A stretch of 64,000 nucleotides of DNA, from NCBI GenBank assembly GCA_964187785.1, contig OZ076414.1, positions 65,596,001 through 65,660,000 of the forward strand. The letters are read 5' to 3'. Position numbers and translations under genes: made by a program. Shown one piece after another: positions 2,630-26,739 of the stretch. Origin of the DNA: Amphiscolops sp. MND2022 (taxonomy: Eukaryota). The notes beneath the pieces are model-generated. The model did not search any database. It had not been told where the DNA came from and saw only the letters and a list, made by a program, of their open reading frames with translations. The stretch's first letter is position 1. The number at the start of each line of letters is the position of its first letter.

Positions 2630-2869
2630 TGTACTGCTTGAAGTCGTTCGATGTTTGCTTTTAGTTCTTTTGGATGAGACATAAAAGTTTCTAAGTTCTA
2701 AGCAAAACCGTTTCGCATAGCTAGCTCACCTTTATTTTCCACAAGTTCTAGACTGACTGAGATATCGGAGTTTCAACTAGTTTCTCTCCTAACTGAGAAG
2801 TCCTCTAGAATCAAATATTCAAGTTATTCTTCTGAATATAAAGTTAAAATCTTTATATCAGGGATGACA
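2630..2869 (-). repeat. LTR (240 bp, TG...CA), putative 3' LTR of element A
   Basis: tgtactgctt...gggatgaca aligns along its length with 15746-15986 (shared gttctttt.gatgagac, agcaaaaccgtt.cgcat.gctagct, gagtttcaactagtttctctc.taactgagaag). Confidence 0.8.
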
Positions 2870-2872
2870 TTA

Positions 2873-3072
2873 NNNNNNNNNNNNNNNNNNNNNNNNNNNN
2901 NNNNNNNNNNNNNNNNNNNNNNNNNNNNNNNNNNNNNNNNNNNNNNNNNNNNNNNNNNNNNNNNNNNNNNNNNNNNNNNNNNNNNNNNNNNNNNNNNNNN
3001 NNNNNNNNNNNNNNNNNNNNNNNNNNNNNNNNNNNNNNNNNNNNNNNNNNNNNNNNNNNNNNNNNNNNNNNN
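2873..3072. other. Assembly gap (200 N)
   Basis: N run. Confidence 1.
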
Positions 3073-3399
3073 CACAAAAAATGTCCGACAATGTCCGGAG
3101 TCCATTTCTAAAAATGATTGCTAATATGAGTACACGATTACAAGTTTACAAGATTAAATATGACGGCTAAATAGACAATCAGCGTTAAAATTGATGAAAT
3201 TGTTGGTAATTATAAGATTATACGAGTACACGATTACAATTACGGTTAATAACAATGATTACAAGGTTATACAAAAACAAGAATGGTTGAGATTTTTTGT
3301 TTAGGTTAAATTACAGACCAGGCTAAAGTTTGAAGCGTTGTGGAGTTTGCAGTGGAGGAGAGAGTTCTGCAAGTGAGGGTGCCGAAAACAGCGACGAAA

Positions 3400-4317
3400 G
3401 TGACTACGATGTAAAGACATCTGGTTATGCCAAAGAAGGGCAGTTGTGATCTGAAGTCGTGAAGAACAGTTCAGCGAGGTATGTGCATCTTAGGTCAGCA
3501 GCATTGGAGGTCAAGGTGAGAAAGTGAAGATTTAGTTGCCAGTAGAGGACAAAGAAGTGGAGAATGTCCATTTGAAATGAGGACAGAAGAGTGAAGATGA
3601 AGTCATGAAGGTTAGTAAAATGGGTGTTGTTGAGGATAATTAGTTTGGTTTTTATCTGGACTATACTGTTCTAATTTCTGGTGGTATCGGAAGTCAAGCA
3701 TGACCGCGTTGAAAACTTGTCGGGCTTCTTCGAGAGCAGCATGGAAAAGGTGATCTTTTTTTGGTAAAAGACGAGTCGATAATGAAGACAGCATTAGAAG
3801 TCGTTTCGCAGATTGCAATGTTAGGACCGTCCATATGAAGACGGTTGTATTGCTCGCAATGGAGGTTCTTTTTCCTAGTTTTCAAACATTATACAAACTA
3901 TGAGGAAAGAACGAGTAGTAGCTTTGGTAATTTTATCGTTGTTGATCTTTAATGATAATTGAATGTCATGGTGTTAAAGATGGCGGCTTTCAAAGTTTCA
4001 GGTGTGGTAGTTGATGGAACGATTTTTGGTGTGGAGCCATTGCTATGACTGCGTGGAAGAGAGAAATGAAGTAAGGAGCTAAGAGGCAGATCCTGGTAGA
4101 ATACAGTGGTGGACGTGGATGCTGAAGGAAGAAAAGAAGAAGGTTGCGTAAAATCCAGGTAAATTGACGTAGTAGTTGTTGGAGTTAACCAAATATGACG
4201 TTGAAAGAGACAAAGAAGACGTTGAATGAGGAAAAGTTTCGAACACAAAATAAATCTGAATGGTGAAATTTTGATGGTTCTGTTGATTTGTACTATAAAT
4301 TTGTGATGAAAGTTCAT
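3400..4317 (-). pseudogene. Accessory ORF X2 of element A (unknown function, frameshifted)
   Basis: RLHMDGPNIAICETTSNAVFIIDSSFTKK/DHLFHAALEEARQVFNAVMLDFRYHQKLEQY aligns with RIHLDGPKIAKCETASNVVFVLNSSFTTKDHYFRTALQEATDLFNNMLQDFGYTQKLELY at 20405..20791. Confidence 0.6.
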
Positions 4318-4599
4318 GTACTAGAAGTAGTTTAGAATAGAGTTCCAAAGCTTGTTGTTCAATCGTGTTTAATAAATTTCATATAAAGATGTCCAAAAGA
4401 GAAAAATTAAATAAGCGAAATAAAAATGTAAGATATTATTAGATGTACTCTATGTGACAAACAGTTTCAAAGAAATTATTAGTATCACAGGTACAAAATG
4501 TATGTAGAAAGGTAGAAAACCAGAAAAGCAGAAGTGGTCCAAAAACTTGAAAAAAGTTCGTATCACCTGCGGAGTTGTAACATCATTTATTGAGAAAAA

Positions 4600-6223
4600 A
4601 AGAGTTGTAATTGAGTCTAAGGCAGATTGAATTGCCTGTGAAGATTGAGAGATTCGTTGCGAATCCAACTCAAGGGATTGAAGGTACGTTCATGGCAGTC
4701 CATCTGAGAGTGAGTGGTGTATCAGAGGGATTTTTTTATGTGGTTCGAGATCTCTTTTATATCGCGAACTGTACGAAGATTAAGCATAACAGACATTTTG
4801 TCAGATGTAGTTTGAGATGTTTTAGAATCGATGGCATTCAATAAATTTGTGTTCTATTTTTTTGTGCAGATCTCACTCTGAATGAAATGACTTTTGCTGA
4901 AATAAAGAGTAGTTCATTTTACGAATAGGATTGTTTTTAGAAAGTGCGGTTTAGTATGAAGTGTCTTTGTCGTCAAGAGGCGAAGAAACAAGACGTTTGA
5001 AAACGGCAAATAGTTTGACTATTTGTGTAGGAATGTTGCAGGGCAACAATAAGTCGACGAAATGTATCAAAGACTCTTGAGGTACAACAAGCGGGCGATA
5101 CGTTTCATTGTGAGGAAGTAGTCAAAAAAATTGTTTAATAAGATGATAGTATCGTAGATAGCCTGTATTATTTGAGTGATCAAGTGTATAGAGATTTGTC
5201 ATTGTGAAAGAAGTATATTTGTAATTTGCGAATATGTAGTTTGTGGTTTTTGGTACTGTAGATATATTGTATATGTTTGATGATGGGTGGCTTTTTGTGA
5301 AATAGAAAGAAATGAAGGGTCATATTCATTCATCTGTTTTCAAATAGTTTATAGACGGGCGAAGACAGTTGAACTGTAATGAGAAAACTTTTACACCGTT
5401 TTCGAGCCAATACTGGAATGGAGGCATGATTTTTGAAACAGTCGAAGTAAAGAAACTTTGATTTGTATCATACCGTTTGAATGTGAAGTCAGTAGGATGC
5501 ATATAAAGAGAGCTAGTTGTGATTTAAAGGTGAAGTGGTCGTGTGAAAGAATTGTTATTAAATTGTCATCTCTATTCGTAGAGAGTGAGGGTTTCGAAGG
5601 TAGAATAGGTGGATATTCAGGTGAAGAAAGAAACGCAGGATCTTTCACTACTTCGTACTCCTTTTTCGGAGGTGCTGGTGTTTCAAGAGAACTATCATTA
5701 GTTATTGCGGGAGGTGTACGTTCTGTTAGAGAGACAGTGTTATGTTCATCTTGTTCTGAATTTGTTTTAGGTTGGTCTTGGTCCATAGCTTCAAAAAAAA
5801 GAACCGGAGAATCGTTAAATAGAGGCTGAGTTATAAGATCAGTAGTAGTCTGTTCGAGGTAAGTTGGCAAGTCAAGTTGTGCTTGAGTCATATTTGAAGA
5901 TTGTTCAAAAAAATACACTAACGAGTGGCTTTGTCTGAAATTTCGGGTGGAGGTGCAAGTACTAGAAGGTTAATAGTAGGATTGTGTGTTCTATTTATTG
6001 TGATTTCAATTACTGGCGTAATTTCAAGAGGAGGAAGGAGCTCAATTTTGAAAATTTTGAAGAGTGAGTTAGGTGTTGCAAAGATGAAGTGTTTTTGAGG
6101 AGTTTCAAAGAGCAGCCTATACTGGAGATATGAAAAGTCAGAATGAATTGGCCTTGAAAGATGGCGGAGTGAAAGGGTAATTTGTTTTGGAATATACTCT
6201 GACAGGGCTTTCATTTTCATCAT
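4600..6223 (-). pseudogene. Accessory ORF X1 of element A (unknown function, frameshifted)
   Basis: MTQAQLDL..LEQTTTDLITQPLFNDSPVL..KDPAFLSSPEYPP..SLSTNRDDNLITILSHDHFTFKSQL aligns with ORF 21932..22735; homology continues to PLVVPQ..IHF.D.LLPCN.PTQ..SSPLDDKD. Confidence 0.65.
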
Positions 6224-6299
6224 TGACAGGAGTGGTATTTAAATGTTATTCAGTTGAGTTAAGTGTGACAGAGTGACAGTTGAATAATGATGTAATGTA

Positions 6300-8760
6300 G
6301 GTTATTGTGGTAGTGGTGAAGTATTGTAAATGATGCTGTCACTTATTGGGTTGATTATATGATCTTTTTCGTTTTGGAAAGATTTTTAATTGTGTTATAG
6401 ATGGAATTTGTTTTGGATGTTTTGTGTAGAAAAGATGAAATAATTCCAGACGGTTTAGTAGACGGATTGGTTGGATCAACTGAATTATCAAATTTACTAA
6501 TGGATGTTCAATTATTGTTGACAGATGGAAGTTGTTGTGAACATTTAATGGATGGTAGTGGTCTTGGGGTATCGCCATCGTTTAGGTCATTGACCATATC
6601 TGATGTGAGAATGTTTAAAAAATCCATGAGCAATAGAACTAAGATTAGTAATATTATGTTTAAAGTTGTGTTTCACAGAATTTGATTATTAAAGTTTGAG
6701 AATGAGTGTTAAATTGTTTGTATAAACAGAAATGTTGAGAAATAACTTCCACATTGGGTGAGAACGTAACATGGATATCCAAATAATGAAATAAAAGTAT
6801 CAGAGAACCATGTAGGCGTGGAAAAGTGAAGTTAGATTAAGGAGTTTATCATGTAGTCCAATACGTAATGTACAATAAGGATTTTATTATGCATTAGAGG
6901 AGTATTCATCATAATTTGGTGTATCAGAAGAAATAAAAGAATAGCTGAAAGCGTTTCCTAAAAGTTGTAAAGTGGTGTCAGAGTGTTTTGAAAATTGAAT
7001 TTTGTTCCAAGTTCTTCATTAGAATATATACCAGCCCAGCGTCTTGTGCTGTCTAAATATTAGGGCGTATTGTAGTTCTGATTTGAGGTGGTGTGAACAT
7101 AAGTGGTGGTTTACGTTTAATTGGTGCAGGTCTGAGAAAATTGCTGGTCATTCGAATCAGGATCGAGTTCAATAATGTTTCTAGGATTATCATCACATGT
7201 AAGAGGAGTAGCATAGTCATAAGTTTCTTGTATGATTGTGGCTACGTACGTAAGGGTATCTTTGAAATATATGGGAACATGATCGGAACAACAATTAGTT
7301 TTGAATAATTGAAAGGGAAATGTGGACAGTCATAAAGCCATGCAGTGGAACCTTCAACATAAAAAAAGTTGAGGGTTTTGTACTGACATTGCATGTACTG
7401 TAAGTATTTGGTTTCGTTCGAACTCACATACTGTTTGGAGGATGTTTAATCCTTGTACTGTCATGGAGCGGAAATTTTATTTGATTGTATGATCAATTTT
7501 TGTATTATTATGGGCATCGTAATCAATTGTAGCAAAGTTATTTGAAACCTTGAGGGCAGGAAAAACGTCCTTTTATTAGGGTCCAAAACCATTTGACCTG
7601 GGATATATTCTTTGATTACAGAGTGAGGAATTGGTTATCGTGTATGCATATTGAAACCATTTGTATATGTATCAAGAAAATCTGAATATTGTGTTGCATA
7701 AAGAGAATCTGGTTTACTACAAAATGTTTTGTTTGAGCATGTGGAGAGACTTTAAAGCGTGAAAGACTAGGATTGTGTGGATTTTGTGTATGCGGAGCGT
7801 GTACATATGGGAAGGGAGTTCCTTCCATACTATGACTTGTCTCCGATTTATTTGGGATGGAAGCGTGTACAAAAGAATCTGTTTCTATCGGTCTTCTATT
7901 TTAGTCATTCGACCAACAAAATCTCGTTATGTAAAAATGAAAAAAAATTATCATTAAACCAAACCAAAGTATAGGTTGTTTTGGTGGTTGGTTTGCCGAA
8001 ACCATCTGCAAAATAGCAAGCTATTGTATGATCATCAGTTACCATAACATTTTCAGTATCGTCATATGTAGGTTCTATTTTAGAAATTGCGAGTCTCCAA
8101 CTGATTAGGTTAATTTCGAACTGATGATGAGCGAGACAGTTATGAAGAGGATTGCGTTTTGGGTCGAAAAGATTTATCTGCAGGCATAAAACTAAAAGTA
8201 TCAGTGTACACTTAGTTGAATTTATAGACAGTTAAAAGAGTTTGAAATTGTTTTAATTTGTTTTGAAAATAAGGTTTTCGAGTAGGGTAAAAACTTTGTT
8301 ATAGTTTAAGTTGTTTAATAATTCAATATTAACGACCCACGAGTACCATTGAGGTGTCGAATATGGTTTGTGCAATCTAAAGGATCAAAGGTAGCAGGAA
8401 TTGGCATTGTGTTATGATTCCAACAGCTCTATCTACTCGTCTGTATTTTACAGAGCCTTGAAAACGTATCGTGCGTTCTTTTATTGCATAAGCTTCACAT
8501 TTGAAAACTTTAATTCGTTTAGCGTTTGCGCGAACATAGACTCGTGCTTGAACAATATTGTGTTGTATATTAGATGGAGCTTCAGTGCGTTGCTCTACAT
8601 TTAATAACTTAAATTGGCGAAAATTATGTTGTTTTGCACAATCTTACTGAGAAACCATGATGTTTGTAATATTAGGATCATCTGATGGAGGATAAATTTC
8701 TGTTTCAATTAGGTCACAAGGAATGGTTTGAGTAATATAAAATAGTAAGAAATAGAGTGT
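6300..8760 (-). pseudogene. env: Envelope glycoprotein, class III fusion-like (chuvirus G / gB-type pattern), many stops and frameshifts
   Basis: Hydrophobic leader LYFLLFYITQTIPC (~8750), then DCAKQHNFRQFKLLNVEQ.TEAPSNI..ARVYVRANAKRIKVFKCEAY (8643 down), DPLDCTNHIRHLNGT, HTIACYFADGF.KPTTKTTYTLVWF, QTVCEFERNQILTVHAMSVQNPQL, VEGSTAWLYDCPHF, TCDDNPRNIIELDPD, and a C-terminal TM segment GYPCYVLTQCGSYFSTFLFIQTI (~6780-6710). Confidence 0.7.
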
Positions 8761-8769
8761 GATATTGGT

Positions 8770-9950
8770 TTAAGAAAGTACTGATTTTGTATTAAAAGGA
8801 TGTTGTATATTTAAGTCCTGAATAGGGTTTGTAACAATTTGACTATATGTTATAGCAAGAAGTTGAGGGTCACGAATACTGTCTATATAAGTGACTTCAA
8901 ATGGAACAGGGATAGTCTTATGTTCCATTTTAGCAACGTGAAACATTGAAAGAGGTTTTAAACCTTGAAATTTAACTTTACCTTCAAACTTCATTTGTAT
9001 ATTAGTGTTTTGGATTCTTTTTAGTGCTGTTTCTTTTCTTTTGTTTGGAAGTAGACCATTAGTTGTAATAAAGCGTTCCGTCAGAGTAGGAAAACGAGGA
9101 TCGTTTTTTTGGGTCGTATATAGTTATATCGTCAACACGTATAGGTTGGTCTGCAAAATTAGGAGTTGGTGGTCGAGAATTATCTGCTGTGAAATATTCA
9201 GGTAGGGTAGTCTCATGAGGAAGTGAGGATAGTTGAGAGTGAGAACGAGGTGTAATAGGTCTTTCAGATATAGGAGGTCTACTAATGTGGTAGAAGCCGA
9301 GGAATATGTATCTGTAATATGTGATCTTGATCTTTTGGAAGGAGTGACTGGAATTACATTGCAAGGTTAAGTTGGTATAACAATTGGAGATTCAGAAATA
9401 GAAAATAGACTAGGAGCAGAGGGAGATGTTTCAGATGAAGAATACAGGATGATAATGAGTGAAGGCAATTCGATGTCTGAGTGAGTCTTCTGTCAACTGT
9501 TGTATTATTGCTACTTGTTTTAATCAAGGTGTTGAGAGTTTTGGAGGTGGTATGAAAAGACGATAATCCTTTCGTGGTTGTTGTCTTAAGTTATAATGGG
9601 TTTTATTACTTCGTTCAGTTTAGTTTTGAGAAAAGTGTCAAGATCGATCAAAGAGTAGATTTATTTGATGAGTTTTATATATTTGTTTGAAAGGTGAGTT
9701 GTCAGTTTGTGTCTTGAGTGGGTTATTATTTGAAGGGGAATTAGAAGAAGTGGATTCTGAATTTGAAGAGGGTATTAAATGTTTTGATTGGTAAGGTACG
9801 GAGAGATCATCTTGTCAAGATATTTCATTAGAAAGGGATTGTTCAGAATTAAATGTTGATTAGTCGCTATTAGCATCTTTAATTGGTTTTGGATTGTCAT
9901 ATTGAGTGGAGTCTGAGAAACGCATTGAGTGGAGTCTGAGAGGTTCTTTT
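8770..9950 (-). pseudogene. Ser/Thr/Pro-rich region plus KFEGKVKFQGLK block between integrase and env
   Basis: ORFs 9059..9364 and 8770..8994; a KFEINIKFQILK counterpart occurs at ~54640 in element C after a similar low-complexity tract. Confidence 0.45.
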
Positions 9951-9959
9951 GGATAGTAA

Positions 9960-11200
9960 AGTATCAAATGGTTTCGATGTGAGGTTTTTTTAAAAAAAGG
10001 ATCCATCTTGAGAAAGAAGTTCATATGTTACATCAGAAAGGCGATCAAGTATCTTGTATGGTCCAATCTGAAGGGGTTTTAGTATGTCAGAAAATTGAAC
10101 GTGTGCAAAGTATCGTTTTAGCACGAAAGTTCCGATACGGAGAGGTTTTCCTTCATGATAGATTTTTGTAATATAAGCTTGAGAGTTAATTTAACGAAGA
10201 GTGTAGTCACATACTGTCGAATAAACTTGTAACATAGCTGTTTCAACAGCAAGAAACCATTGAGAAAGAGGATTCAAAAGTGTACGATAAAAAAAGATTA
10301 GGATCTGTTTTGTTATAGTGGGAATGTTCAGATAGAGCGGAGCAATATTGTAAAATTCATGTTTTGTTTGAATTTTGATTAAGGTTCAAGTCAAATGTGT
10401 GTGGAATTCGAGGACATGTATAAAAAAAACAATTTCATGAGGAGAAACTTCTAACGATGAAAGAGGTTCTGAATTATGTGCATTGGTGTACAAATGGAAT
10501 TGATGAGCCCCGTCTTTTGAAGTGTTGTTAAGAAACATACGGAGATCTGTACCAAAGTTTTCGTTTTGTATTTCACCGAGTCCATTTGTCCAAGGTGAGT
10601 AAGGGGTTCTAGGAGAGTGACGAATTCTCATGAGAGTACAGAATTGTGCCAATAAATGTTAATATATTCTAATCCACGATCAGTGACAAGGTTCATAGGT
10701 GGGCCAAATTTGATATCCAAATGATGAAGAAGTGATGTGACAGCAGTTTTAGCGTTATTGGATTTGATAGGAGCTGAAACAACAAAGTGACTAAAAGCAT
10801 CAACAATAACGTGTATGTAGGATTTGTTCTCTGAAGGAGGATTTATGGGGCCTCTGGTTTCCATGGAAATCCTGTAACTGAAAGAAGGAGCATGTTCTGA
10901 AAACAATTGTATTGGAGCAGTTCGATCTTTTTGGGTAAAATTTTTGTTGCGTTGACATTCGAGACACTCGTGTATAAAAATGGAAAGCCTTTTTTCAAGA
11001 AAAGGAATATAATAGTTTTGCGAAAAGGTGTTACAAGTAATTTTAAGAACTGTATGACAATCAACATGAAGTTTATTGAAAACTGTTTGAAAAAGACAAA
11101 ATGGTAGACACATTTTGAATGTAGTTTGGATAATTGTAGTATGTAGATTGGAGGATTGTGTCGAAGGGTTTTGTGTTCTTGTTTATAGATTATTTAAATT
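9960..11200 (-). pseudogene. Integrase of element A (HHCC, DDE core, GPY/F module)
   Basis: LH..H..YYIPFLEKRLSIFIHECLECQRNK; YIHVIVDAFSHFV; LVTDRGLEY; TPYSPWTNGLGEIQN; KPLQIGPYKILDRLSDVTYEL (~10020-10075). Confidence 0.9.
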
Positions 11201-11699
11201 AGTAAGGTCGTCTACAGAAAGTTGTGAAAAGATTTTGTAATATGCATGTAATATGGTGTACCAGTGATTTGATGTTTTGAGAGTTTGGGTTTAGTGTTAT
11301 AAGAGAGCCAGGAGTATTACAATTTTGAGCACTGGATCTTGGAATTGTTGTTGTTTAAGAGTGTGTGAATCTAAAGAGTTGTCATCAGGTAATAAGAAGG
11401 CTTGGAAACAGTTTTTGTATTTGAAGAAGGATGGGTCATAAAAAGGAATAACTTGTGATGAGTGTGTGGAGAGTTTTAATAGTTGTTGTTTATCAATGGC
11501 ATTAGCGGTAAAAATAAAGTATTAGGTGATTTATTAGGTGTTGAAAAGTTTTCATTTAGAAGAGTTTTGGCAGTTCCGAAAGGTGTTGAATCTTTTGGTA
11601 TCCTCGTGTGAATGTGGTCTTCATCATTACTGAGATTATCAGTGTCATTGAGTAAAAGAGATTGTTGATGAAGAGGTTTGTTATGCTTTTTATAGGATT

Positions 11700-12140
11700 T
11701 TTATATTTTGTTTCGAAAGAGATAATCGATGAGGAAGAAAAGGAGTCTAAAGGTTTGACAATGATATCATTGCCCTGTCGCAAACATAGGATAGGAGTCG
11801 TGTTTTCGATGAGGTAAATTTTCTTCGTGTTTAAAAAGGTAATGTATAGGCTTAATTGTATGATCTTGTAAGATTGCGAAGTCAATTCGTGGAGGAAGTT
11901 GTTAGTGTTTAAGTTTAATTTAATTTTGTTAAGTGCATTTGAGCACGATAAAACCTTTATTGGTAAAACAGTGTAATAATGGTCTGTGAAGAATATGATC
12001 TGTGAAGACGTGGATTGGATGCGGTGATCCAATGATGAAAAATTCATAGATCTGTAAGGCATGTAAAATACCAAGAAATTCACGATCAAGGGTGGACAGT
12101 TTTTGTTCTTGTGGATTAAGGAATCAAAAATTATAAGAAA
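11700..12140 (-). pseudogene. RNase H C-terminal part of element A, fused directly to the gag end (protease and RT deleted)
   Basis: LNPQEQKLSTLDREFLGILHALQIYEF.II.SPHP.HVFTDH starts ~12120, immediately after the gag tail; no DSG/DTG or YxDD between them. Confidence 0.8.
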
Positions 12141-12144
12141 AAAC

Positions 12145-14700
12145 TTATATTTTGTTTTCTTCATTGTTTTGTACTTCATCGTTAAGGGAATCATTGGTAG
12201 CTTGTGGTTGAATTGAAATAAGTTTGTTTCGTGTATCGGAGTGTGATATAGATCCGGAGTATCTAGAATCTCTTGGTATTGAAGGTGGTCTGAATGAAGA
12301 AGTATATCGGGAAAAGTTATTATCTCTAGAATAAGAACGAGATCTATAGCGATGACGAGAGTCATTTTTATGTGGGGGTCGATATGAAGATGTATACGGA
12401 GAGCGGTAAGATCGAGAATATCTTTTATAGTGGTCATATCGTGAGCGAGTATAGTGTGGAGGAGTAATATTTTTGTCATAAGCAAATGCAACTCTAGATG
12501 TAAAACGATAATTGTTTTGAGAGGTGTTATTTTTGTTGAAATAATTGTTGCGCGATGTACTCCGAATGTGATATCGAGTATCATGTCGTTTTGTTCTATC
12601 ATTACAAGGAGAACGAAAGAATTGCACAAATGACTTTTGAGGGGATTTAGATCTAGCGTATGCTTCTTGTTTATCTTCGTCATCTCTTTGTTTTTTGAAT
12701 CAAGTCGAGATGGAATGATTAATTCTATGATAGAAGGAGCAATTTTTTTTCAAATGCAGGTTTTGTTTTGTTGTTAGGTCTTTAGGTTGTGTAAAGATAA
12801 CTTGATCGTTTTGAGGAGAGTCAAAAGTTTGTGTTTGGAATTGTTTTGTATTATTATTTAGTTCGAGAGTATGGTGATGTGTACGTATTTTGTCTTTAGC
12901 TATATCTCCAACGTCAACTTGTTTAACTAGTGTATGAAAGTGGAAATAAAGGTTCTAAAACAGTAGAAGTATGTTTCACTTGTCTTTTATTAACAAAGTC
13001 TTTGAGATTTTTTGGAAGTCCTTTTGTAAAGATTTAATTGCATTTCAATTTTTTTGTAGATTAGGAGTTTCTACTTGTGCATAAGAAGCAATCTTTGGTG
13101 CTGAAAACTATTTAAAATGCTTGCGCAAAAACAGACGGGCCTTGTTTATATGTGGCATTCAAACGAAAGTACCAACTAAGTGCTGTGCCAGTCAGTGAAC
13201 ATTGTATGAAAACCATACGTCTAGCGCGCCAAATTTTATATTCAAGATCTGTAGTTGTAAACCTAAGGAGAAAACAACGCCTGCCTCAATATTTTGTAGA
13301 TATTCTTCAGGAGTATAATTATGGTCTGAACCATCAAAGGGTTTAATAGGTTTAGAAATAGATGCAAAAGATTTTATTTATGTTGGGTTTGATACTGCTG
13401 AAGAGGGTATTGTAGAAGGCGGTACTGAATGATAAGTTGGTGTAATAGAAGGATTTGGATGTTTATTTTGTGTAGTTATACATGGTGGAGTAGATGTAAT
13501 TTTAATGTGAGGGTTTGTTCTGATGTTAGTTGAAGGGTATTAGATGTTTGAGAAAGTTTGATAATGAGAATCTTGAACTGTATATTGTATTGTTTGATTA
13601 GTATATTGTAATGTTGAAAGAGATTTTATATTTGTATGATTATTACGGGTATTACATGTAGTTGATTGTTGTGAATGATTTGGATTTGTACTTGTCAAAC
13701 AATTAGAGAGTGGGTTTGTAGGGATAGTTTGTATTGGAGGTCGAGATAAGTTTTGAGAAGTGGTATAAATAAGTATATAAGTAGATAAAGTATTCGTATG
13801 AAGAGTATTCATTGTTAAAACAGGTTGAGCAGTTTGCGTATAAGAAGTCTCTGCAGGTGTATATGATAGTGTTTGGTGAGGTAGTTAGCTTGTTGGAGTG
13901 CTTGTTTGAAATTGAGCTTGTGGTGTGTTTTGTGATGTATCCGTAATAGGTGCATTTGAGGAACATTGTTAAGGATTATTATGTGGGGTATTATGTGTAG
14001 AACATTGAGGTAGGACAGGAGGTGGTTCATATTTTCTTGGTGATGTATGATGAGTTGGAAATGGTTGTGTAATGTTTGTATTCGATGCTAGTGTTGTGGA
14101 TGTATCATCAGGTTGTTGAGTGTTACGTTCTTGAGCTATTATTTGTCTAACGTCTAATGAATTAGAATCTGCTATAAATGTTAAGCTAGGCTGGTTATTT
14201 CTGGTTACACCAGAAGGATCAGATAATTTTTGAATTGTAACAGTAGTTTGTTGTTCATGTGTTAAATTATTATGTTGTGTCATTGGTTTTTCCTGAGGGG
14301 CATTTCCAAATTGATCTTTTTGAGGTGTGTTTTGTTGGTCTTGAAATGGGGCTTCGTCTGTGTCATCAAGTATTTTTTGGAATATTTCTAGGTTATCATT
14401 ATCAAAGGATGTGTCAGAGATAATTTTAGAAGATTTATATGGTCAATAGTATCAGATGTTTCAGATTGTTCTGTAATAAAATGATCTTCAAGACTTATTT
14501 GTTCTAGATAGGATGGGTGAAAAGTGGTAAGATATTTGTAGTATCTATGTTTATTTTGAGTTTTTTTATGATAAATGGTAAGAGTTCTGTTTCGGTTAGT
14601 ACTTATGAGGAAGTGAATATATGCAGCGTGGTCTTGTTGATGTGTAATGTTTTGTATCGAAGGCAATATAAACAAAAGTCTGCGTGTTCTCTAAGTATGG
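12145..14700 (-). pseudogene. gag: Gag of element A (T/N/Q/P-rich N-terminus, retrotransposon gag core, degenerate CCHC, RS/RY-rich tail)
   Basis: MVFIQCSLTGTALSWYFRLNATYKQ (~13210); KGLPKNLKDFVNKRQVKH; CSFYHRINHSIST* (~12741-12700, broken CCHC); ORF 12145..12627 rich in R/S/Y. The 5' limit is approximate. Confidence 0.7.
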
Positions 14701-15727
14701 GTATAGTTTGTATTGAGTGGGGTTCTGTTTCAAATGGAACATGATTTGTGTAATGAAAAAAATTGTCATGTAAGTACGGTATTACACCGTGTGTAAAAAA
14801 ACGTATTTGTCTTTGTTGATCTGATTATATAAATGGTGATGGAAGCATTTTGATAAGCACTAGAATTTATGTCTGACATGAGAGTTAGTTATTAGAAAAG
14901 AAGGGTTTCCATAGGGGTAGATATATTGGAAGGTAAGATTTTTTGTATTGTAATTAGTATTATATGGAAGAATTTGATCTACAAAAACAATTTGAAGGAA
15001 AATTACACGTTTTATAGAAGGAATAAGTAAAAATTCGTTATGTACTAAAAAATTGAGAGTATCAATGGTATGGTAGATACCAAGAAGTCTTGAAAGTGGG
15101 AGTACAATATTTGCAATCATAAGTATCGTAATAAAGTTAGAGTTTAGAATTTGGGTATAAAATGTACCGAAAACTTATCAAAGAAAAAGGCAAGGCTTGC
15201 AAGTAGTCCAAGCTAGAACCTGAGACAGATATTAAACCGTACAATCAGCTGAAGGCATTTCTTGAATCGAGTTTAGATTTCATTGTAAAATTTTGTTATG
15301 TATTTTAATGAGAAGTATATTGTATGTAAAATCTTTCATATAGATTCTGTTATATATCTGTTATATATCCCATGGCACTGTTTGAAAAAGAGTTGTATCA
15401 TAGATGGAAATTTATATAAGGAGTGTATGAAATGGTTTGTTCAAAAAGTGCACCAACTTTAAACGAGTTGATCCAAGCGGCTAGAACCAGGGTGTCAACT
15501 AGCAGGATTCTAGAATAACTGACAGGAATTACGTTGGTTACGTAGTGAGAACCATACCAACAGGAAAGTTTTTCAAGGAAAATCGGTTGGAACGTTGAAT
15601 TATTAGCGGTAAGTGACGAAAAGAGGAAGAGAGACTGTGAGTCGAACCAAGAAGTAGCGTATGAAAAAATTGAAAAAAGATGTACAATTTGAGTGAATGC
15701 GTGAACAAAATGAAGAGAGAAGGAAAT

Positions 15728-15745: not shown

Positions 15746-15986
15746 TATACTGCTTAGAATTAGTTTGATGTTCGCTATTAGTTCTTTTAGATGAGACGTA
15801 AGACGTTTCTAAGTTCCAAGCAAAACCGTTCCGCATCGCTAGCTTATCATTATTTTCTACAAGTTCTAAACTGATTGAGATCCCAGAGTTTCAACTAGTT
15901 TCTCTCTTAACTGAGAAGGCTTCTAGAGTCAAAGATTCATGTTTTTCTTTGGATTATAAAGTTCCAAAGTTACTTCAGTGATTACA
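15746..15986 (-). repeat. LTR (241 bp), 5' LTR of element A
   Basis: Aligns with 2630-2869; one terminus mutated (ta instead of tg on plus strand); visibly diverged from the left LTR. Confidence 0.8.
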
Positions 15987-18754
15987 TCAGATTCAAAGGT
16001 TCTCATTCAAAGGTTTACAGGAAGATTACTTCCCTACTGAAACTCTAATGAGGTTATTAGTAAAGGTCAGCATCCTAATTCTAAAATGTTAACTTCTGAA
16101 TGAAGTGTTATCTGTTAAGTTATTGGGTCTAAGATTTCATATACTTTCAAGAATATGAAAATACTTTACGACATGCATCATTGCATCACATTTCCCAACG
16201 CATCAACGTGGCCGGGCACAGGTAGAGCGCAAACATGGTTCTGCCAAGAGTGCCGACCAGAGAGCTTGAACCTGTTAACCTTCGTTGTTGCCGAGAGAAA
16301 CCCCCTTTTACAACCTGTAAGCGTTTACGCGACGATATCTGTGAGAAGGGTTCTCTGGCGAAAACACCTCTCTGCTTCGTCGAGGTAGAAAGAGAGTCAA
16401 TGAATTGATTCTCCGTCTCATTTGCCTTGGTACGAACCCATTAATGATTGTCGTCACCTTTGGGCCTGGCGCACTTTGCAACAACCCAATCCTGTCTGGA
16501 TAATGTGTTGGAGTGAACATGCAAAATGACCCTGCAAACTACAGATGAACAGAAAATCAAAACGAGAACACTTTGGAAAGTAACACGTGGATTGTGCTTT
16601 TCTGTTAAATCTGCATATCAAACGCATTTGAACCTACTAGTTCAGCAAAAGTCAATTGATCTTGTGATTCAAAGAAATTTGAAGTAATAATTACAACTTA
16701 TGTTCGTGATTAATAATGCATTAATGTGCTTTGTACAAGAATCGCAAATTTTGCAAATTTGTTTTAATGTTGAACATTATTCTGATATATTGTTTCATAT
16801 GTCGAATTGTAACAATGTTATAAATGAACTGATGTCCAATTGGTGATATTTAACTATCGAAAGATTTTGTTGTTATCAGAAATCAAGTGTGCATTGTTTG
16901 TGAATGCGCGTACTGTTTTATTTGAAGAGATACAAAAATGAATTGACTTTGAATGGAGTTCAGCTTCGTTTCTTGTTTGTCATGAAAACCTAACTTCATC
17001 TTTTTCTAAATTATGAACGAATTTGAACCCCATTTTATGCCTAATCACGCTCTTCTGAAAGTATTTTGTCGGGCATTTCCCCAGTCGGCCATTAGCGCCG
17101 TCGGCCAATTGACCTAGCACCGTGCTATACCATACCCACTGATAACTGAGTGACTCACTCATGTTAGTTCATGACGTCATTTTTCTATTCAACTTTGAAC
17201 TTTTCGAAAGAGTGAGTTTACGTTACGTCATTTATTACCTGTGCTGCTGCTCTTTGGTGACAACATATGCGAGATTGATTGAATTCCAGATGCCCAGGGA
17301 AAATAGCTTCTCTCCAGCCCACCACTACCTGACATGTGCACTTTCTTATCCGCTTGTCACAAGGGACTCCGCAAAGTATATGCCGTATGTTTCTCTCTGG
17401 AATCGATATTATTTGGTCCATGTTTCTTCTTTATTCCCCTTGTTTCTTTTGTCCCCAACTCAAAAGCAACTTCTGTGCTCCAAAAAATTCTCAGACGAAT
17501 ATTAGAGCTTGATATAGCTATAAATACTTGAGGATTGTCTATATAGTTGGTTCGACACTTGAAACAAAAAATGATCCTAATTTTTGTAGTTTCAGACAAA
17601 AAAGCAAAAATTCATTTCTGGAACGACTAAAAATAGATATGAAAGTTCCTATTTCACCGCAACTTTTCTCTGTGATAGAATAAAATGAGCATCTTTTAAC
17701 TGTCAACTGATGTTAGATTATGTCGACATCAGTTATTTAATTTGTCCAAAATGTCAGTGCAAATGATGTCGACAATGATATTTGTACCTTGTTTTTTAAC
17801 GAAAGCCAATAAAACCCCCACCCTCACACCGTCGGATGGGACAAATTGTACAATTATTTTTTACTGCCGTCAAAAAACTATTAGGAATAGTTCCATTCCG
17901 ATAAAAATGTTCAAATCTGTTATATCAGTTATGATTTTTTATACATGTCTTACTTGAAGAAAAAATTCTTGAATAGTTTTTTGCAATCGTATGAATGATT
18001 TCTCTACCAGTGTCAGGGAAACAATTTTATTCAGATTTTGAAAGTAAAATTTCAATTTTTCAGGGCCAAAATTTCCGTAAGAATATACTTTGCGGAGTCC
18101 CTCCTTCTCACACCCCGTACTGACAAAAATTTGAATTCCAAGACTGCCAAGGATTGGTAAGGACTGGTCAAGTTCTGGACGAGTGTTTTCATGTGCCACT
18201 TTTAGCCTTACAAGTCCTGGACCAGTCCTTACCAATCCTGGGGAATCTTGGAAATACGCTGCCAAGGACTGGAACACGGAAAAATCCAAAACCGATTCAG
18301 GGCTTATAAGGGCCGAATAGGTGCTATATTTAGTTGAAATGACTGTTGTTAGGTGCAGCAAGAAGGTTTTTTTAGTATGTTACCTTACAAAAATCGTGAA
18401 AATTGTTTCTCGTCAAGTGAACATGAAAACGACCTCAAAAATATTCGTTTCTATAGTCTGGGCTGTCCAACTGAGAAACAGTCGACACTGGCAGGGCTAC
18501 AAACGAACAGTTGCATATAAAAGGCCCCATTTACAATACCACATCAAATGAATGAGCCCAAAAAACATGTTTTGTTTGATGTCTCTCGAATTCCATCAAA
18601 TATCAGATCATGACGTCGAAAAGACATTTGATTGATTTAGGTCTTATTCCGTTAGATCTCAATACCCCTCTCCGGGAAAACCCTTTTTTTATTATTATAT
18701 CCGGTACTATTGAGCCCAGACATAGTCTCGGCTATGGGAATAGTACCGGAACAA

Positions 18755-21700
18755 TTATTCTGACAATTATTCGTTTCTTTTAGATGTTTGATTACAGACA
18801 TAAGAAGTCTAGGATTTTAACAGCAAAGTCGTCGTATTTCAAGTTAGTTTAGCTAGCCAGTTCTGGGTCTAGTCTTTCTGAGATCTCAGTTACTTTCTCT
18901 GTCGAGAGTAAGATTGTTTGGTGGATTAGAATCTAATTTTCTCCGACGAGATATATTCTATCAACTAGGGTAGATTTCATTCATTTACATTAATAAAAAA
19001 GTGACAGTACCAAGATGAATCTGAGAAGCTTGTTACAGGATATAATAAGTGAAGTTTCTTCTGAGATAATTAGCTTTCAAATGGAATTACATCTATTAAT
19101 TACTTGGGCTGAGAGTTCAGATATCTCTGAGTTATAGAATCTTTGAGGACATGTATCATGGCATCACAATCAACTGGGAATTTGAAAAATTAAAATTACA
19201 TATATGCACTTTGGCTTGAGGAGTTCTAGAGTTTGTGTTTCAAATGTTTAAGTTTTTGTTTCAGATGTTATATGTATGGGTTTGTTATGCATGAGTTTCG
19301 TTCTGAAATGTACCATACTTAAGAAGTGAGAAAAACCTTAGACGATTTGACTTCTTACGTCATAAACGATTCAATGGGTGCAAAAAGTTTCAGTTTCTTT
19401 GAGTTTCGTTGACTGACAGTTTTGTTCAAGTTATTATTGACAACAATTTTTTATTTCATGTTCCTTTTTCGTATCAGCCATCAGCTTGTTTGAAAAAAAG
19501 ATCATCAACATGAGTTAGCCAGCATTGAAAACTTCCCAAGTTGAAGCATTAAAGCGTGATGTTGTCAATGAGTTGTGAACCAACAGTGGCAAGAAGTTCT
19601 GAAAGCAAAAAAAAACTTTGACAATTGCAAGTTTCAAACATCGAAAAATCAGAAGTTAGAGTTTTGAACGGTTCAAATGAAAAAAAAATTAAATTTTTTG
19701 GGATTGTTTTGCGGAATAAAAATAAAGATGTAGGAAGCATGTTATGAAAAGAAAACATTTTGTCAAAAAGCTTAGAAAATGTTTGTACTATACGTAGGAC
19801 TTGTGTTCTGTAAAAGATGTGAATTATAGATTTATTGAATAGATGTATTATACCCATAACAGTAGAGATATAATTTGCGGTTACAACGTAATTATGGACT
19901 CGAATTTTTTGGGGGTTTAGCGACAAAGGTGGGCAATTATAGATGATTATGGAAAGTATGATTATACAATAATAAGATTAAATAAGGGTATACAATATTA
20001 AGATTATATTTTGGATTAACAATAAGTAAGATTATACAGTAGTTTAGAGTTATATTAAAATTTGAAATTGGGTTATTTTAAAGTATGAAATTGGCGGCAA
20101 GTGAATTGTTTGAAATTTGCAAGTGAATTCAGTTCAGCGGAGTGAAAAGACCAGTCAAGTAGAGAAGGAGTCGACGTTGCAGTGGCGGCCGTGAAGAAAG
20201 ACCAGTGAAGAGTTGAGTGTAGTGGCGGCCATGAAGAAAGACCAGTGAAGATGACAGAGGAAGAAGCCAGTTGACAAAGTTGAAGAACCCATAGTGACGA
20301 AGGATGATGGTGACCATCTGGAAGGTGTGCACGAAGCAGTGAGAAGTGTCAGCGTTGTAGGAGAAGTTCTTTGGAGGAGTGATCAACAATTACATCTCGA
20401 GGCATTATCGAAGAAGGATGAAGAAGTGAAGAGGAGATGTATCTGAAGAGTGAGAGAATGTAAGTAGATTGTTTATGACAATAAAGGATGTTGTTGCGGC
20501 GGATGGATGTTGAAGCGCGTCATATAATTCCAATTTTTGTGTATAGCCAAAATCTTGGAGCATATTGTTGAAAAGGTCGGTTGCTTCTTGAAGAGCTGTG
20601 CGAAAATAGTGATCTTTTGTAGTGAAGGATGAATTAAGAACGAAAACGACATTTGACGCCGTTTCGCATTTAGCAATTTTAGGGCCATCAAGATGAATGC
20701 GAGAATCTTGGTCGAATGTTATCTTTTTCTTCTTGATTTGAGTAACGTTATAGAGAACTTTCAAGAAGGCAATAAAAGATTTTGAAGTCACCCTTTTTTA
20801 TTAATTTCGAGAGAAAGTTTAAATGCCATGGTGTGGAATATGGCGGCTTTGAGGCTTTGAACTTTTGAAAAATCTGAGGTCATAGTAATATTATCGTGTG
20901 TTTCAGCGTTGGGAGCCATTGTGATGAAACTGTGAAGAGCGTGATGAAAGATAAGTGGAGATGTTTTGAAAGAACGCTGAAGGAGGAGGAAGAAGAATAG
21001 ATGTTTCTAAAACATAGGAACTTTAAGAAGATTGACAATGACAAGTCAAAGGTGTACAACAAAAATTGGTGCTACAATGTATTATATTTTGGTGCAATTA
21101 TATATTGTTTTTAAGGTGTCTTGTAGCTTAATTGTAATATGTAACATAGGCAAAGAATCGTAAATGTTTTCATGTACTTTAGGACAAGGAGTGTATGTAC
21201 TGTAAAGTAAAAAATTCCTGAGAATTCATTCAGAAAAGGGGAAGAAAGTGTTACCTTTATGTAGTTTAGAAATGTACCATAGAGTACCTTTGATGTAAGT
21301 CAAAAGATGTGCCATAAAGTGTACCAGAGGAGAAAAATTAGGAAATTTGTATTACCTGTAGAAGAGTTTATTGAAGATTAGTTGAAATAAAAAGAGTAGT
21401 TATGGATTCCAAAGCAGATTGAATTGCTTGGGATGATTGAGTGATGGGTTGAGAGTCTAGATGAAGTGTTTGTGTGTTCTGTCATAGCAGTGTAATATAT
21501 GTGTGAGTGGGTGTTTCAGAAGGAGTTCGTTTATATGGGTCTAAGAGGTTTGTCATATCGCGAAGTGTTCGATTGTTCAAGACAGAAAAAAGTTTGTCAG
21601 GAGTGTTTTTTATTGGTGAGGAAGGTAATTTGTGTTCTGATTTTTGTTCAGCTTGTACCATAAACGAAAAGATTTTGGCTGCAATAAACAAAAGTTCGTT

Positions 21701-22728
21701 ATAGGTGTATGTCTGTTTGTATAGAGCTGTATAATATGTTTTATCTTTGTCATCTAGCGGAGAAGAGACAAGTTGTTTTATAACGGTGAGAGGTTTTACT
21801 TTTTGAGTAGGAACGTTGCAAGGCAACAAAAAATCATCGAAATGTATAAGGTATTTTTGAGGTACAATAAGTGGGCGTGAAGTGTTATTGTATGGAAGCA
21901 AACCGTAGTACTGTTTTATAGGATCATAGTTTCAATGATATCCTGTTATACAAGAGTGATCAAGAGTGTACATATTTGTCATTGTGAAGGGTGATGTGTA
22001 TTTGTAATTAACGAAATTGAAAATTTTTGGTCTTGTGTGCTGTAAAAACTTAGTGTATGTTTGATGATGAGTAGTTTTTTGAGATACAGAGAGAAAGCAC
22101 GGATCAGATTCGTCTGTTTTTAAATCGTATATAGATGGGCGAAGAAAATTAAATTGCAGAGAAAAGATTTTGACTCCATTGTCAAGCCAGTATTGGTATG
22201 GACTCATGATTTTTGAAGCGATAGATGTGAAAAAGTCTTGATTTGTGTCATATAAGCGGAATGAATAGTCTGTAGGATGCATGTAGAGATAAGTTAGTTG
22301 TGCTTTGAAGATGAAATCATCATGAGAAAGAAGTGAGATCAAATAATCATCACGATTTGTAGAAAGAGAATTTTTGGGAGATATGAAAGGAGGATAGATT
22401 GGTGAAGAAAGAAAGAGAGGATCTTTCATAATTTCATATCGTGTTTTCGGAGGAAGTGGTGTTGCGTGTGTATGATCAGTATCATTGAGCGGAGTAGAAA
22501 CTTTCGATGTATCATGTTCAATTTTTTCGTGTTCCATTTGTTCTAGAAGAGTGGTAGGTATTGGTTCAGAAGTGTCAATATATAAAACAGGAGAATCATT
22601 TAGGAGAGGTCTTGTTGTGAGATCTGCTGTAGCTTGTTCAAGTTGATTTTGTAGATCGACTTGTGCTTGTGTCATTGTGTTGAAAGAAGAAACATCAACA
22701 ATCACAGTGATATCTATTCCAAGAGGCC
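18755..22728 (-). mobile_element. Element B: 3' portion of a related family member (LTR-like ~18755-18989, 3' UTR, accessory ORFs X2 and X1), 5'-truncated
   Basis: The LTR-like segment shares blocks with A LTRs (gtttcttttagatg..agacataa, agcaaa.tcgt, agctagc, agttct..ctgagat, tagaatc.aat.ttc) and ends in ca followed by tta like 2869; gattata-rich UTR like 3120-3300; ORFs homologous to A X1/X2. About 19400-19920 looks like an unrelated AT-rich insertion. Confidence 0.7.
20129..21062 (-). pseudogene. Accessory ORF X2, copy B
   Basis: ORFs 20880..21062, 20405..20791 and 20129..20389 are homologous to 3400-4317. Confidence 0.6.
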
Positions 22729-23600: not shown

Positions 23601-26515
23601 ATGAAAACTCAACTTTGCAAGCTAAGAAATCTCGAGAAAAACTGTTTAACGATCTTTGACATCGGAAACCTCGCCATATTTGAGCTCAGTCGAATAGTTT
23701 CCTGAACAACGCAAGCAAGTCACCGGTACTTGAACGCCCTATGAAAATATTTTTTGCACGGCAATTCAAACATACATAAAGGTCATTCCCTCTTCGGCAA
23801 GTCAGACGTATTGTAAAAAAATTCACATTTGGAGGTCTGTAGGGATTTTACCTCTTATCGGACTCGCAACTAGAAGAAGGTTGTTTCGGTGGGTGTCGAA
23901 ACTCTGACTGCTTCGAATGAGAGACTACTGGTCTCTCATTATGATGTCTACCTGCGTTGAAATGATAAAACGGAGTTTTGAAGTGCTTTTGCTGTTTTGT
24001 GTTTAATTCGACTTCGGGGTTCCAATGTAGTCCCGCGTACCGAAGGTCAACGTTTGTGCTAAATCCCTCTTTGAGCGGTCCCAGGCTAACATGAGTCTGC
24101 GGAATGTTTTTCTCTCCAAATGCAGGGTCCATTGCCGTCTTAATCTGAGTATATTAGGATTTCCAGAGTTCTTTCACTATTTTTCTACTATTAGTGTTCA
24201 TCATCGTTTTAACTTGCAATAATAAACTTCAGCTTTCTTGGCGACCATCAGACAATAGGTCAGCTTGTGAATCTTTTGCTGAAAAGTTGGTAAATCACCA
24301 AGTTTTTCGCCATTCAAGTTCCTACTTTGGTGAGTCTCATTGGACTGTAGGTCCATTTCTACAAGTCACTTGTTTTCTCACTCGTCCAATAGCTTTTCAA
24401 CATAACAATCGTCTCTTCCAAATCTGACATTACGTAGTTTTTCCGTAACTTTCTGCTTTCTTGATGAACGCATTATAAAAATGAACTTATCTTCAACAGT
24501 GAACTTTCTTGATTTCCAACGGAATTTTCTACCAAGACCCTCCGCTGACGGGCGGGATATTTTCCGCCAGAAAATGTGCCACTACGTTGTGAGTTTGATG
24601 CCCAAAAGTAGCCAAAACTATTTTAAAAATGCATAGATGCTTGAAATAACGAAAATTTCGACACTTTTTGATTCATTTGATGACATTTTTAGAGGAAGCG
24701 CTTGATGTAACCAAACCCTCAGTACTAATTTGGTTTGTTGTTGAGCTAAATGTATGCCAGTACCCAACCAACCACTTTTTCATTTGTTTGTATACACAGA
24801 AGTCAGAAAAGTTTCAAAAATTGGAAAAAAATGATTTTTTCGACTCCTTTGGGTCGCTTTGAACTCTTAGAAAATGCCTCTTGGATTCCGTAATCAGACC
24901 ATGGTGAAAAATTAAATCATTCGAACCCACGAAATAACTCGAAATTTTTACAAAAATGCATGAAAACGTCATGAAAAATGTCGAAATTTGGGAGTATGTG
25001 GTTGATAAATGAGAAACTTCTGAATTTTTGACTTCTTTGTTCTCGAATTGGAAGAACTCTATCTCGTTTTTTCTCAAGTAGTGTTTAGAATACACTTTTG
25101 TTTCAACGTTCATGTCAATGGAAGTTCTATTCTACAAAAATTTCCTGACTTGAACAAAAACTAACACTATCCCAGATTTTAGACTTTTTGGTTTTTGGAG
25201 TGTTTTTCAACGTTCAAACTACATGAAGTTTCCCAAAGTACTTGAAAAACTTTTTATAAAACCAAATTGTCCAAATTTTCGTCTAATTTTATGTCATTCT
25301 GATCAGTATTCTGTATTTGATTCAAACATGGCAACTTTTCAGAAAGATATAATGCATAACTAGTTCTTTCGTCTTGAAAAAGTTTGAACCCTTTCACACA
25401 TGAAAACCCTCACACATGAAATCGTACACAAATTGTATCGAAAAGGACAAAACCTGGAAACGTTTAAATTTTTTGTTAATTCCGGGTCGTTTTGATGCAT
25501 TTTCCTATACAAGAAATGCATTTATGGCTCCATAAAAAACGCCATATTAAACGCCACCGGAAATTTGACAAAAATTGCATGAAAAGCTTAAAAAAAGACT
25601 TATTTTTGTCTGTTTCGGTCGTAGTTTAGGGCTTTTTCCCAATTCAAAAACTGCATCAACTTTTTTTGGAAAACAGTTTTTTCTTGTTGGAGCGGAGCAA
25701 CGTTTTGAGCCACGTTTATCGAAAATTTGACAAAAATTGCATGAAAATGTCATTTTTGCTTCCGGTCATTCTGGGGTTTTTGGGGTCGACCAAAAAAGTC
25801 CGAGAATCTCTACAAATACATATCGCACAGAACTAAAGTTATGTGAGATAAATTCGATAGGTGACACTCTTCAATTTGAGTATAGTTTTGGAGCATGGCA
25901 AATTTGGTTAAAAAAACTCGGTTGATATAAATGTTGTGCTATCCCATGTGAAATATGGGCGGTAAATAAAAACTCATTCTGCTAAATTCGATAATTCCAG
26001 CAACTGAGGGACACGTAATGCAGAAATGACATGTACCGATGCAGCTGTGAAAATGGCAGGGGAACAATCTTTCTTTGAGGAAAGTTACCTGTTGGCATCA
26101 ATGCATTTTTTGACTCAGGTTGTTAGAACGAGTGAATATAATTTCAATTGGAGAAAAGCACCTCTCCATTTTGATATTGGTATTTTGTCTTTTCTAACAA
26201 AAAAACACAAAGAACCCAAAATTTAAAAAAGCTGACATTCAGAAACAAAAACCTATAGGAGGACCATAAGGGCTCACAAAACACTTTGTCCTTACTGAAA
26301 ACATCATCAAAAAAACTTAAAGGGCGACTCTTTCCTGAAACTTTTCCAGGAACGTCGCAGAGTGTGGAAAGAAATGTAATTGAGGAAACCTTCGATCTAG
26401 TGTGTTATTTGTGTTCGAAAAAGATTTTTAAAATCGCAAGATACGAATACAGGCTTAAGAGGCATAGGCTGACAACATTGCGAAGTCAGTTTCAAACTCT
26501 ATACCACTTCAATTT

Positions 26516-26671
26516 CAAAATGGGAACAAGCAAAATCAAGTTGAAAACAAACAATGTCAAATTTGGAATTAACAAACTCAAGTTGGGAAGTAACAAATGC
26601 AAGCTGGGATTAACAAATTGAACTTGGGAATTAACAATCTCAAGTTGGGAATGGACGAACTCAATTTGAGA
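26516..26671 (+). repeat. 21-bp minisatellite, ~7.5 degenerate units (caagttgggaattaacaaact-like)
   Basis: Units start at 26516, 26537, 26558, 26579, 26600, 26620, 26641 and 26662. Confidence 0.85.
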
Positions 26672-26739
26672 TGTCTGAAAAAATACTGGAAATTTGAACT
26701 CCACTGGAAACATTCTCAACATCAACTATTGAGTGCTAT

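Follow-up and report, generated by a model that had tools for sequence, protein, structure and literature searches.

Two open reading frames located downstream of env, designated X1 and X2, are almost certainly selected and spliced accessory genes of a retroelement. They were found in elements A and B, which belong to a large Ty3/gypsy family and lie, both in decayed form, on the minus strand of the window, i.e., the whole stretch of 64,000 nucleotides analyzed here (Table 1).

Conserved coding blocks in two decayed elements

An earlier note on this DNA had claimed long protein-level conservation between elements A and B alongside far more diverged non-coding flanks, and both observations were reproduced. 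A tblastx comparison of B (18.5 to 23 kb) with A (2.6 to 16.3 kb) recovered, on the minus strand and at 55-78% identity, the blocks cited in that note. The X1 block starting with MHPTD was 77% identical over 60 amino acids (B 22288-22109; A 5508-5329) and a further block 67% identical over 91 amino acids, and the block R.H.DGP.IA.CET showed 55-56% identity over 40 and 32 amino acids. At the nucleotide level, blastn paired the two elements only at 4590-5891 in A and 21382-22675 in B (69% identity), leaving the spacer and the 3' UTR unaligned. Two details of the earlier description were revised: what had been given as two X1 pieces in element B is one ORF split by a premature stop, and X2 starts further upstream than the piece originally delimited, by about 120 nt (position 20919 in B, position 4040 in A).

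Table 1. Coordinates and state of the features of elements A and B within the window
Feature	Position	Strand	Basis and remarks
Element A 5' LTR	15746..16190	-	TG... start; PBS-like TGG adjoining; LTR pair alignment
Element A gag-pol remnant	9525..14850	-	gag, RNase H, integrase; Pfam and tblastn; lower end approximate
Element A ORF Y remnant	8794..9450	-	tblastn; third accessory ORF, after pol and before env
Element A env remnant, class III fusion type	6159..8811	-	tblastn; PF24664 in other copies
X1 of element A	4583..5891	-	frame broken by stops and frameshifts; lower end approximate
X1-X2 spacer of element A	4041..4566	-	donor-like CAG/GTGATA at 4567/4566; no recognizable acceptor
X2 of element A	3612..4040	-	frame broken by frameshifts
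Element A 3' LTR	2630..3076	-	includes N gap 2873-3072
X1 of element B	21368..22675	-	premature stop 21932-21934; frameshift near 21480
GT-AG intron, X1 stop to X2, element B	21007..21355	-	349 nt; donor CAG/GTAATA, acceptor TTTTAG/A
X2 of element B	20473..20919	-	frame broken by frameshifts
Element B 3' LTR	18761..19168	-	lower end approximate

The two LTRs of element A were identical at 203 of 240 aligned positions. Its gag-pol remnant matched RT_RNaseH, rve, and Integrase_H2C2 in Pfam, and the protease and RT are missing (gag-pol residues about 985-1812 were unmatched in tblastn). Element B is a 5'-truncated 3' fragment that begins about 70 nt upstream of the X1 ATG and carries an LTR at its other end; its X1 is 79% identical to another copy across 440 amino acids. 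Elsewhere in the window, a decayed family-2-like element was located at 50200-56620 on the plus strand; it is cut inside env and was therefore rejected as evidence for a lineage devoid of X1. Direct repeats at 1-295/1396-1690 and 57452-59536/61914-64000 (100% and 99.6% identity in blastn, respectively) are either recent duplications or assembly artefacts, and a 21-nt tandem array occupies 26508-26693.

An envelope-bearing Ty3/gypsy family with additional ORFs

A 126-aa piece of X1 retrieved 5960 first-look candidates in a 1.07-Gb animal genome, none of the 150 that were scored having a stop inside the match, and a 77-aa piece of X2 retrieved 3072 candidates. The gene order in 20 young copies was gag-pol, ORF Y, env, X1, X2, UTR, and LTR, with an env of about 900 aa, an X1 of 442-447 aa, an X2 of 150 aa, and a UTR of about 1.4 kb. 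X2 was full length in 15 of these copies and absent from one; the copies had been picked for long X1 frames, which makes X1 intactness among them a biased count. The position downstream of env proposed earlier was borne out, as the upstream ORF is a true env matching PF24664, a class III fusion domain, in other copies (E 6e-25 and 2e-21 in two of them; E 5e-27 to 2e-21 across three families). This match points to Monjiviricetes fusion proteins, and a hydrophobic segment near residue 712 agrees with a C-terminal membrane anchor.

The gag-pol is a single frame with the Ty3 order of gag, PR, RT, RNase H, and integrase (the Pfam order in three families), with capsid and CCHC motifs in gag and DSGA/DTGA and YIDD motifs in pol. 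When RT-RH was ranked against PDB sequences, Ty3 came top (135 bits; foamy Pol, 71 bits). The hallmarks of LTR retrotransposons, namely TG..CA ends, a PBS, and a short target duplication, were present. Since the LTRs of the one copy inspected differed at 1 of 419 bases (with a 4-bp target duplication), the family must have moved recently. By its domain content, with the RT placed by ranking, the family is assigned to the env-bearing Ty3/gypsy elements (Metaviridae) with a class III env.

When 1.84 billion representatives were searched with a profile, 578 matches at E 0.001 emerged, of which 150, mostly fragments, were listed and 10 inspected. Two of these 10 led to sister families 2 and 3, both in the same genome, in which Y, env, and X1 occur in the same order. 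Identity between the three families was 72-78% in RT-RH, 54-60% in env, 39-42% in X1, and 40-49% in the Y C-terminus, with 67 of 368 columns of the X1 core common to all three. Another X1 relative of 447 aa (P0253), whose best match among 94 scored in this genome was 50% identical, probably represents a fourth family or another genome.

Purifying selection on X1, X2, and ORF Y

Selection was assessed with Nei-Gojobori counts on natural copies. Between elements A and B, X1 gave a dN/dS of 0.17 over 359 codons (dS 1.27, dN 0.21), and X2 a pS of 0.78 and a pN of 0.22 over 81 codons, whereas shifted-frame controls gave 1.1-3.6. The 20 young copies, which form 190 non-independent pairs, yielded dN/dS values of 0.13 for env, 0.12 for X1, 0.09 for X2, and 0.13 for Y, against 1.95-2.82 in shifted frames, 0.82 in the spacer, and 0.73 in the UTR. 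Comparison of the young copies with 20 divergent ones gave 0.16 for both env and X1, and ORF Y of element A gave 0.23 against the 20 young copies. Across all codon comparisons, shifted frames ranged from 1.1 to 5.1, and spacer and UTR from 0.73 to 1.09. X1, X2, and Y are thus under purifying selection as strong as that on env, the contrast being large despite the non-independence of the pairs.

The earlier note had regarded X1 and X2 as selected protein-coding genes of the active element and had proposed dN/dS across genomic copies as a check; values of 0.09-0.17 in the sense frame only, far from 1, together with the existence of open copies, agree with that view. It is hardly tenable that the two ORFs are passengers, whether through non-coding conservation or as a host gene or other TE inserted before A and B diverged: their lack of a recognizable domain and the absence of X2 from 1 of 20 copies might suggest so, but the codon tests already refute it, place and splice sites are conserved in three families, and every X1 locus fetched lay in an element context.

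A working intron between X1 and X2

A GGTAA donor lies 3-60 nt past the X1 stop in all three families (family 1, 18 of 20 copies; family 2, 19 of 20; family 3, 12 of 12), against a background frequency of 0.3-0.8 per kb, and the last ORF is preceded by a pyrimidine-AG acceptor. A gap pattern with the X2 start 85-112 nt past the X1 stop detected 15 intron-less copies, and a control pattern detected none; 14 of the 15 carry an exact 331-nt GT..AG deletion, and the fifteenth has diverged at the junction. The intron-retaining pattern detected 1150 copies, the two patterns differing in strictness. Two of the intron-less copies are near-duplicates, and the backbones of the others show 83-97% identity to the reference copy, so that intron loss must have recurred. 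In family 2, one of 20 copies lacked its 653-nt intron, which was again lost exactly. The intron-less copies were otherwise of the genome type over the 7 kb examined upstream, and they are reverse-transcribed spliced RNAs, which means that the intron works and that most packaged RNA kept it. Element B retains both donor and acceptor of the intron whose homolog was exactly lost in other genomic copies. Because the proven donor lies past the X1 stop, an X1-X2 fusion cannot arise from this splice.

Searches among the genomic copies for a second acceptor before X2 and for a leader-to-X1 junction returned no matches, and 14 loci that stood out by unusual frame lengths or by tandem matches were rejected as spliced forms because they were duplications or deletions. 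Family 3 also harbors a GT-AG stretch of 115-116 nt before X1 (L191-L202, about 4300-4580), which in 8 of 11 copies would join an exon coding for GIDxTVIVDVF in frame to X1; the same peptide was in frame with X1 in 13 of 19 family-1 copies. The X1 N-terminus may accordingly be longer than called. Env and X1 are separated by a stretch (window 5918-6150, minus strand; L022:4873-5055) containing a short frame of some 40 codons, which, with a pN/pS of 0.40, is possibly a small coding exon.

X2 as an exchangeable cassette

Among the 19 young copies with X2, two alleles (13 and 6 copies) differed at 28.4% of bases, whereas Y, env, X1, the distal UTR, and the LTR differed by 4.3-7.6% between the same two groups, with the step in divergence falling within about 100 nt of the X2 ORF ends. 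The six allele-2 carriers formed one clade in X2 (support 100), and quick trees rejected this clade in X1 (p-AU 4e-5) and in UTR+LTR (p-AU 0.0017). In six allele-1 copies, divergence was 1.3% in X2 but 3.9-5.3% in Y, env, X1, and LTR, a contrast expected if a sweep took place recently. The two largest X2 protein clusters (590 and 312 members) grouped with the two alleles in a quick tree. Selection within and between the alleles was purifying (pN/pS 0.07-0.16), with no dN/dS above 1.

In family 2, the last slot is occupied by a 300-aa Ser/Thr/Pro-rich ORF (L055-L074, about 6600-7570) without a match to X2, and in family 3 by a 158-aa ORF (L191-L201, about 6400-6875) weakly resembling the N-terminal half of X2 (hhalign E 0.0013, a score equalled by 1 of 1600 shuffles). 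X2 has moved between element backbones, and other ORFs take its slot in the sister families.

ORF Y and protein features of env, X1, and X2

ORF Y spans about 410-490 codons without an ATG (dN/dS 0.13; L022:979-2229 and equivalents in families 2 and 3). A CTG in an AnnCTGG context occupies the same place in 20 of 20, 11 of 11, and 10 of 10 copies in which the site was found, CTG accounting for 10 of the 461 Leu codons counted, and one divergent copy has ATG at this site. The pattern suggests that translation of ORF Y likely starts at CUG. Families 1 and 3 have a PSAP motif in Y, and all three families have PPxY (PPFY, PPKY, or PPNY) in the long cytoplasmic env tail.

In accordance with the earlier claim that neither protein has a recognizable domain, X1, X2, Y, and the last ORFs of the sister families all stayed below the Pfam cut-off, and the best PDB sequence matches reached only E 0.04-1.2. 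X1 was not linked by sequence or fold to any RNA-export, DNA-binding, or anti-silencing protein. Neither Pfam nor PDB matched X1 or X2 to Tas or Bet, proteins of a kind that diverge past detection; the ESM Atlas gave no usable match for X1, and a search of viral contigs found no relative. AlphaFold2 models were of low confidence (mean pLDDT 50.5 for X2 and 40.0 for the X1 core). The Foldseek check that had been suggested for a known fold gave no matches at E 0.001 in PDB and BFVD, a blank which, with such input models, is no evidence of a new fold, and VIA on the same low-confidence models reached a best Z of 6.8, on helical pairs. On these searches, X1 and X2 are regarded as two protein families without a match in the libraries used.

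The N-terminus of X1 is variable and mostly acidic (dN/dS 0.33-0.48). A basic patch reads PPPKKRY or PTKKKY in families 1 and 2 and is weaker in family 3 (QKRMYP or QKRKYP). The core is aromatic-rich, and within the X1 model the long helix at the C-terminus was predicted best. The net charge of X1 ranges from -5 to +3; comparison of the three families revealed neither an Arg-rich stretch nor an invariant Cys, and no transmembrane segment was detected in X1 or X2. A Tudor/SH3-like stretch in X1, noticed by eye, was discarded as Pfam gave it no support.

Possible roles of X1 and X2

The reading that we favor, and hold only tentatively, is that X1 is a nuclear self-associating regulator aiding intron-retaining RNA, and X2 a host-conflict factor. 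As the working intron is retained in about 99% of copies, genomic RNA must exit the nucleus unspliced, and X1, likely nuclear, might help to make or export this RNA in a manner similar to that of CERV or Rev. The basic patch and C-terminal helix of X1 would fit a nuclear, oligomeric role. Removal of the intron would bring the X2 start to about 100 nt past the X1 stop, or else the acceptor may serve a separate X2 message. X2 would likely meet a host defence factor, with variants spreading between element backbones, and its allele swapping and the replacement of the last ORF might fit an arms race. Against the export model, no sequence or fold match points to such a function, the basic stretch of X1 is weaker in family 3, and X1 lacks both an Arg-rich stretch and an invariant Cys, unlike Rev or CERV; Rev has an arginine-rich stretch. 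The unspliced RNA of many simple retroelements is exported by cis elements and host factors alone; that cis elements could perform the export counts against X1 as an export factor. Similarly, the spread of X2 alleles could reflect hitch-hiking or a recombination hot spot without any conflict, and the purifying selection on X2 does not speak for a conflict.

CERV of C. elegans Cer1 acts in the export of unspliced genomic RNA (PMC10309623). Rev has the same task. The present family resembles such systems in that its genomic RNA keeps a functional intron (1150 copies versus 15 without). From its published description, CERV differs in having exons in common with gag, a G-protein-like domain, and a Cys loop, whereas X1 follows a true env and lacks any invariant Cys.

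A spumavirus-like arrangement, in which X1 would be a Tas-like transactivator of the LTR or an internal promoter and X2 a Bet-like restriction antagonist, seems somewhat unlikely. X1 and X2 are likewise placed downstream of env, and X1 combines an acidic variable N-terminus with a basic patch. In spumaviruses, Bet is a fusion made by splicing between the two accessory ORFs, with the donor inside the first; here, the donor follows the X1 stop, which excludes a Bet-type fusion through this donor, though further donors may exist. Moreover, the RT is Ty3-like, X1 and X2 match no Tas or Bet in Pfam or PDB, and an internal promoter is only hypothetical for this family. The accessible text of PMC5210030 describes fish foamy-like ERVs in which pol and env are separated by a single ORF of about 420-445 codons and env is followed by two or three selected ORFs of unassigned function, a layout close to that observed here; those elements and the spumaviruses are retroviruses, in contrast to a family whose RT is nearest Ty3 and whose env is class III, so the shared layout is convergent. 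The analogy with spumavirus tas/bel2 drawn in the earlier note thus stands for layout but not for kinship.

It also seems unlikely that Y is a matrix-like and X1 an inner structural protein of the particle, acquired together with, or adapted to, the class III envelope of a negative-strand RNA virus. Y, env, and X1 do move as one block in three families, env matches Monjiviricetes fusion proteins, the PSAP motif of Y in families 1 and 3 and the PPxY of all three env tails resemble late domains, and X1 has a coiled-coil-like end. However, the viral contigs contained no relative, the basic patch of X1 is NLS-like, and gag already supplies the capsid and CCHC motifs.

It is improbable that X2 represents the C-terminal (roadblock) domain of a Rag GTPase, whether captured or mimicked, and alters host nutrient signaling or trafficking. 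The top three ESM Atlas feature matches for X2 were Gtr1/RagA clusters (0.82-0.83), and by eye its C-terminal half reads strand-strand-strand-helix, which we take to be reminiscent of a roadblock; yet Atlas scores below 0.9 are leads only, 0.8 being reached by a third of shuffled proteins, and what X2 has in common with the ORF of family 3 is a pair of helices rather than a roadblock hairpin. Comparison of X2 with the Rag roadblock by HMM, hhalign, and profile alignment remained at shuffle level, but as the RagA-RagC positive control failed likewise, these tests had no power.

Comparison with other elements and significance

Env-carrying Ty3/gypsy elements with an HSV/gB-type (class III) env, termed 'ancient errantiviruses', have three ORFs according to PMC13524379, in the main text of which 'accessory', 'extra ORF', and 'splice' do not occur. 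As far as that text describes them, they share with the present family LTRs, a Ty3-order gag-pol, a class III env after pol, and many near-identical copies; the present family differs in adding three selected ORFs (Y, X1, and X2) and an intron. The accessible texts on rotifer LTR retrotransposons with an exchangeable ORF3 (PMC5408684) and on Oikopleura Tor elements (PMC4402516), together with a review (PMC6431247), report extra ORFs around env. These elements are similar in having modular extra ORFs that replace env or lie before or after it, and spliced or internally promoted env RNAs, whereas the extra ORFs of the rotifer and Tor elements are named enzymes or a single env. Swapping of last-ORF alleles behind a fixed Y-env-X1 block was not found in the accessible parts of these three sources. 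The literature covered, which excluded subscription papers, Repbase/Dfam, and supplements, offered only analogues of this layout.

Enveloped Ty3/gypsy elements are known as three-gene elements. The present family adds a further three genes under selection, a proven intron, and a last gene that can be swapped, and so shows the pattern of complex retroviruses, although its ancestry and its class of envelope are different. It is possible, if doubtful, that this Ty3/gypsy lineage independently evolved a full complex-retrovirus genome, with a CUG-started protein upstream of a class III env, a Rev-like X1 of new fold, and an exchangeable arms-race X2 with alleles sweeping through the element backbones, all linked by splicing. 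By analogy with complex retroviruses, the accessory genes likely regulate the RNA of the element itself and counter host defence. Numbering more than a thousand copies, in which two X2 alleles coexist, the family offers a natural test of the benefit of accessory genes and of the host pathway that they meet.
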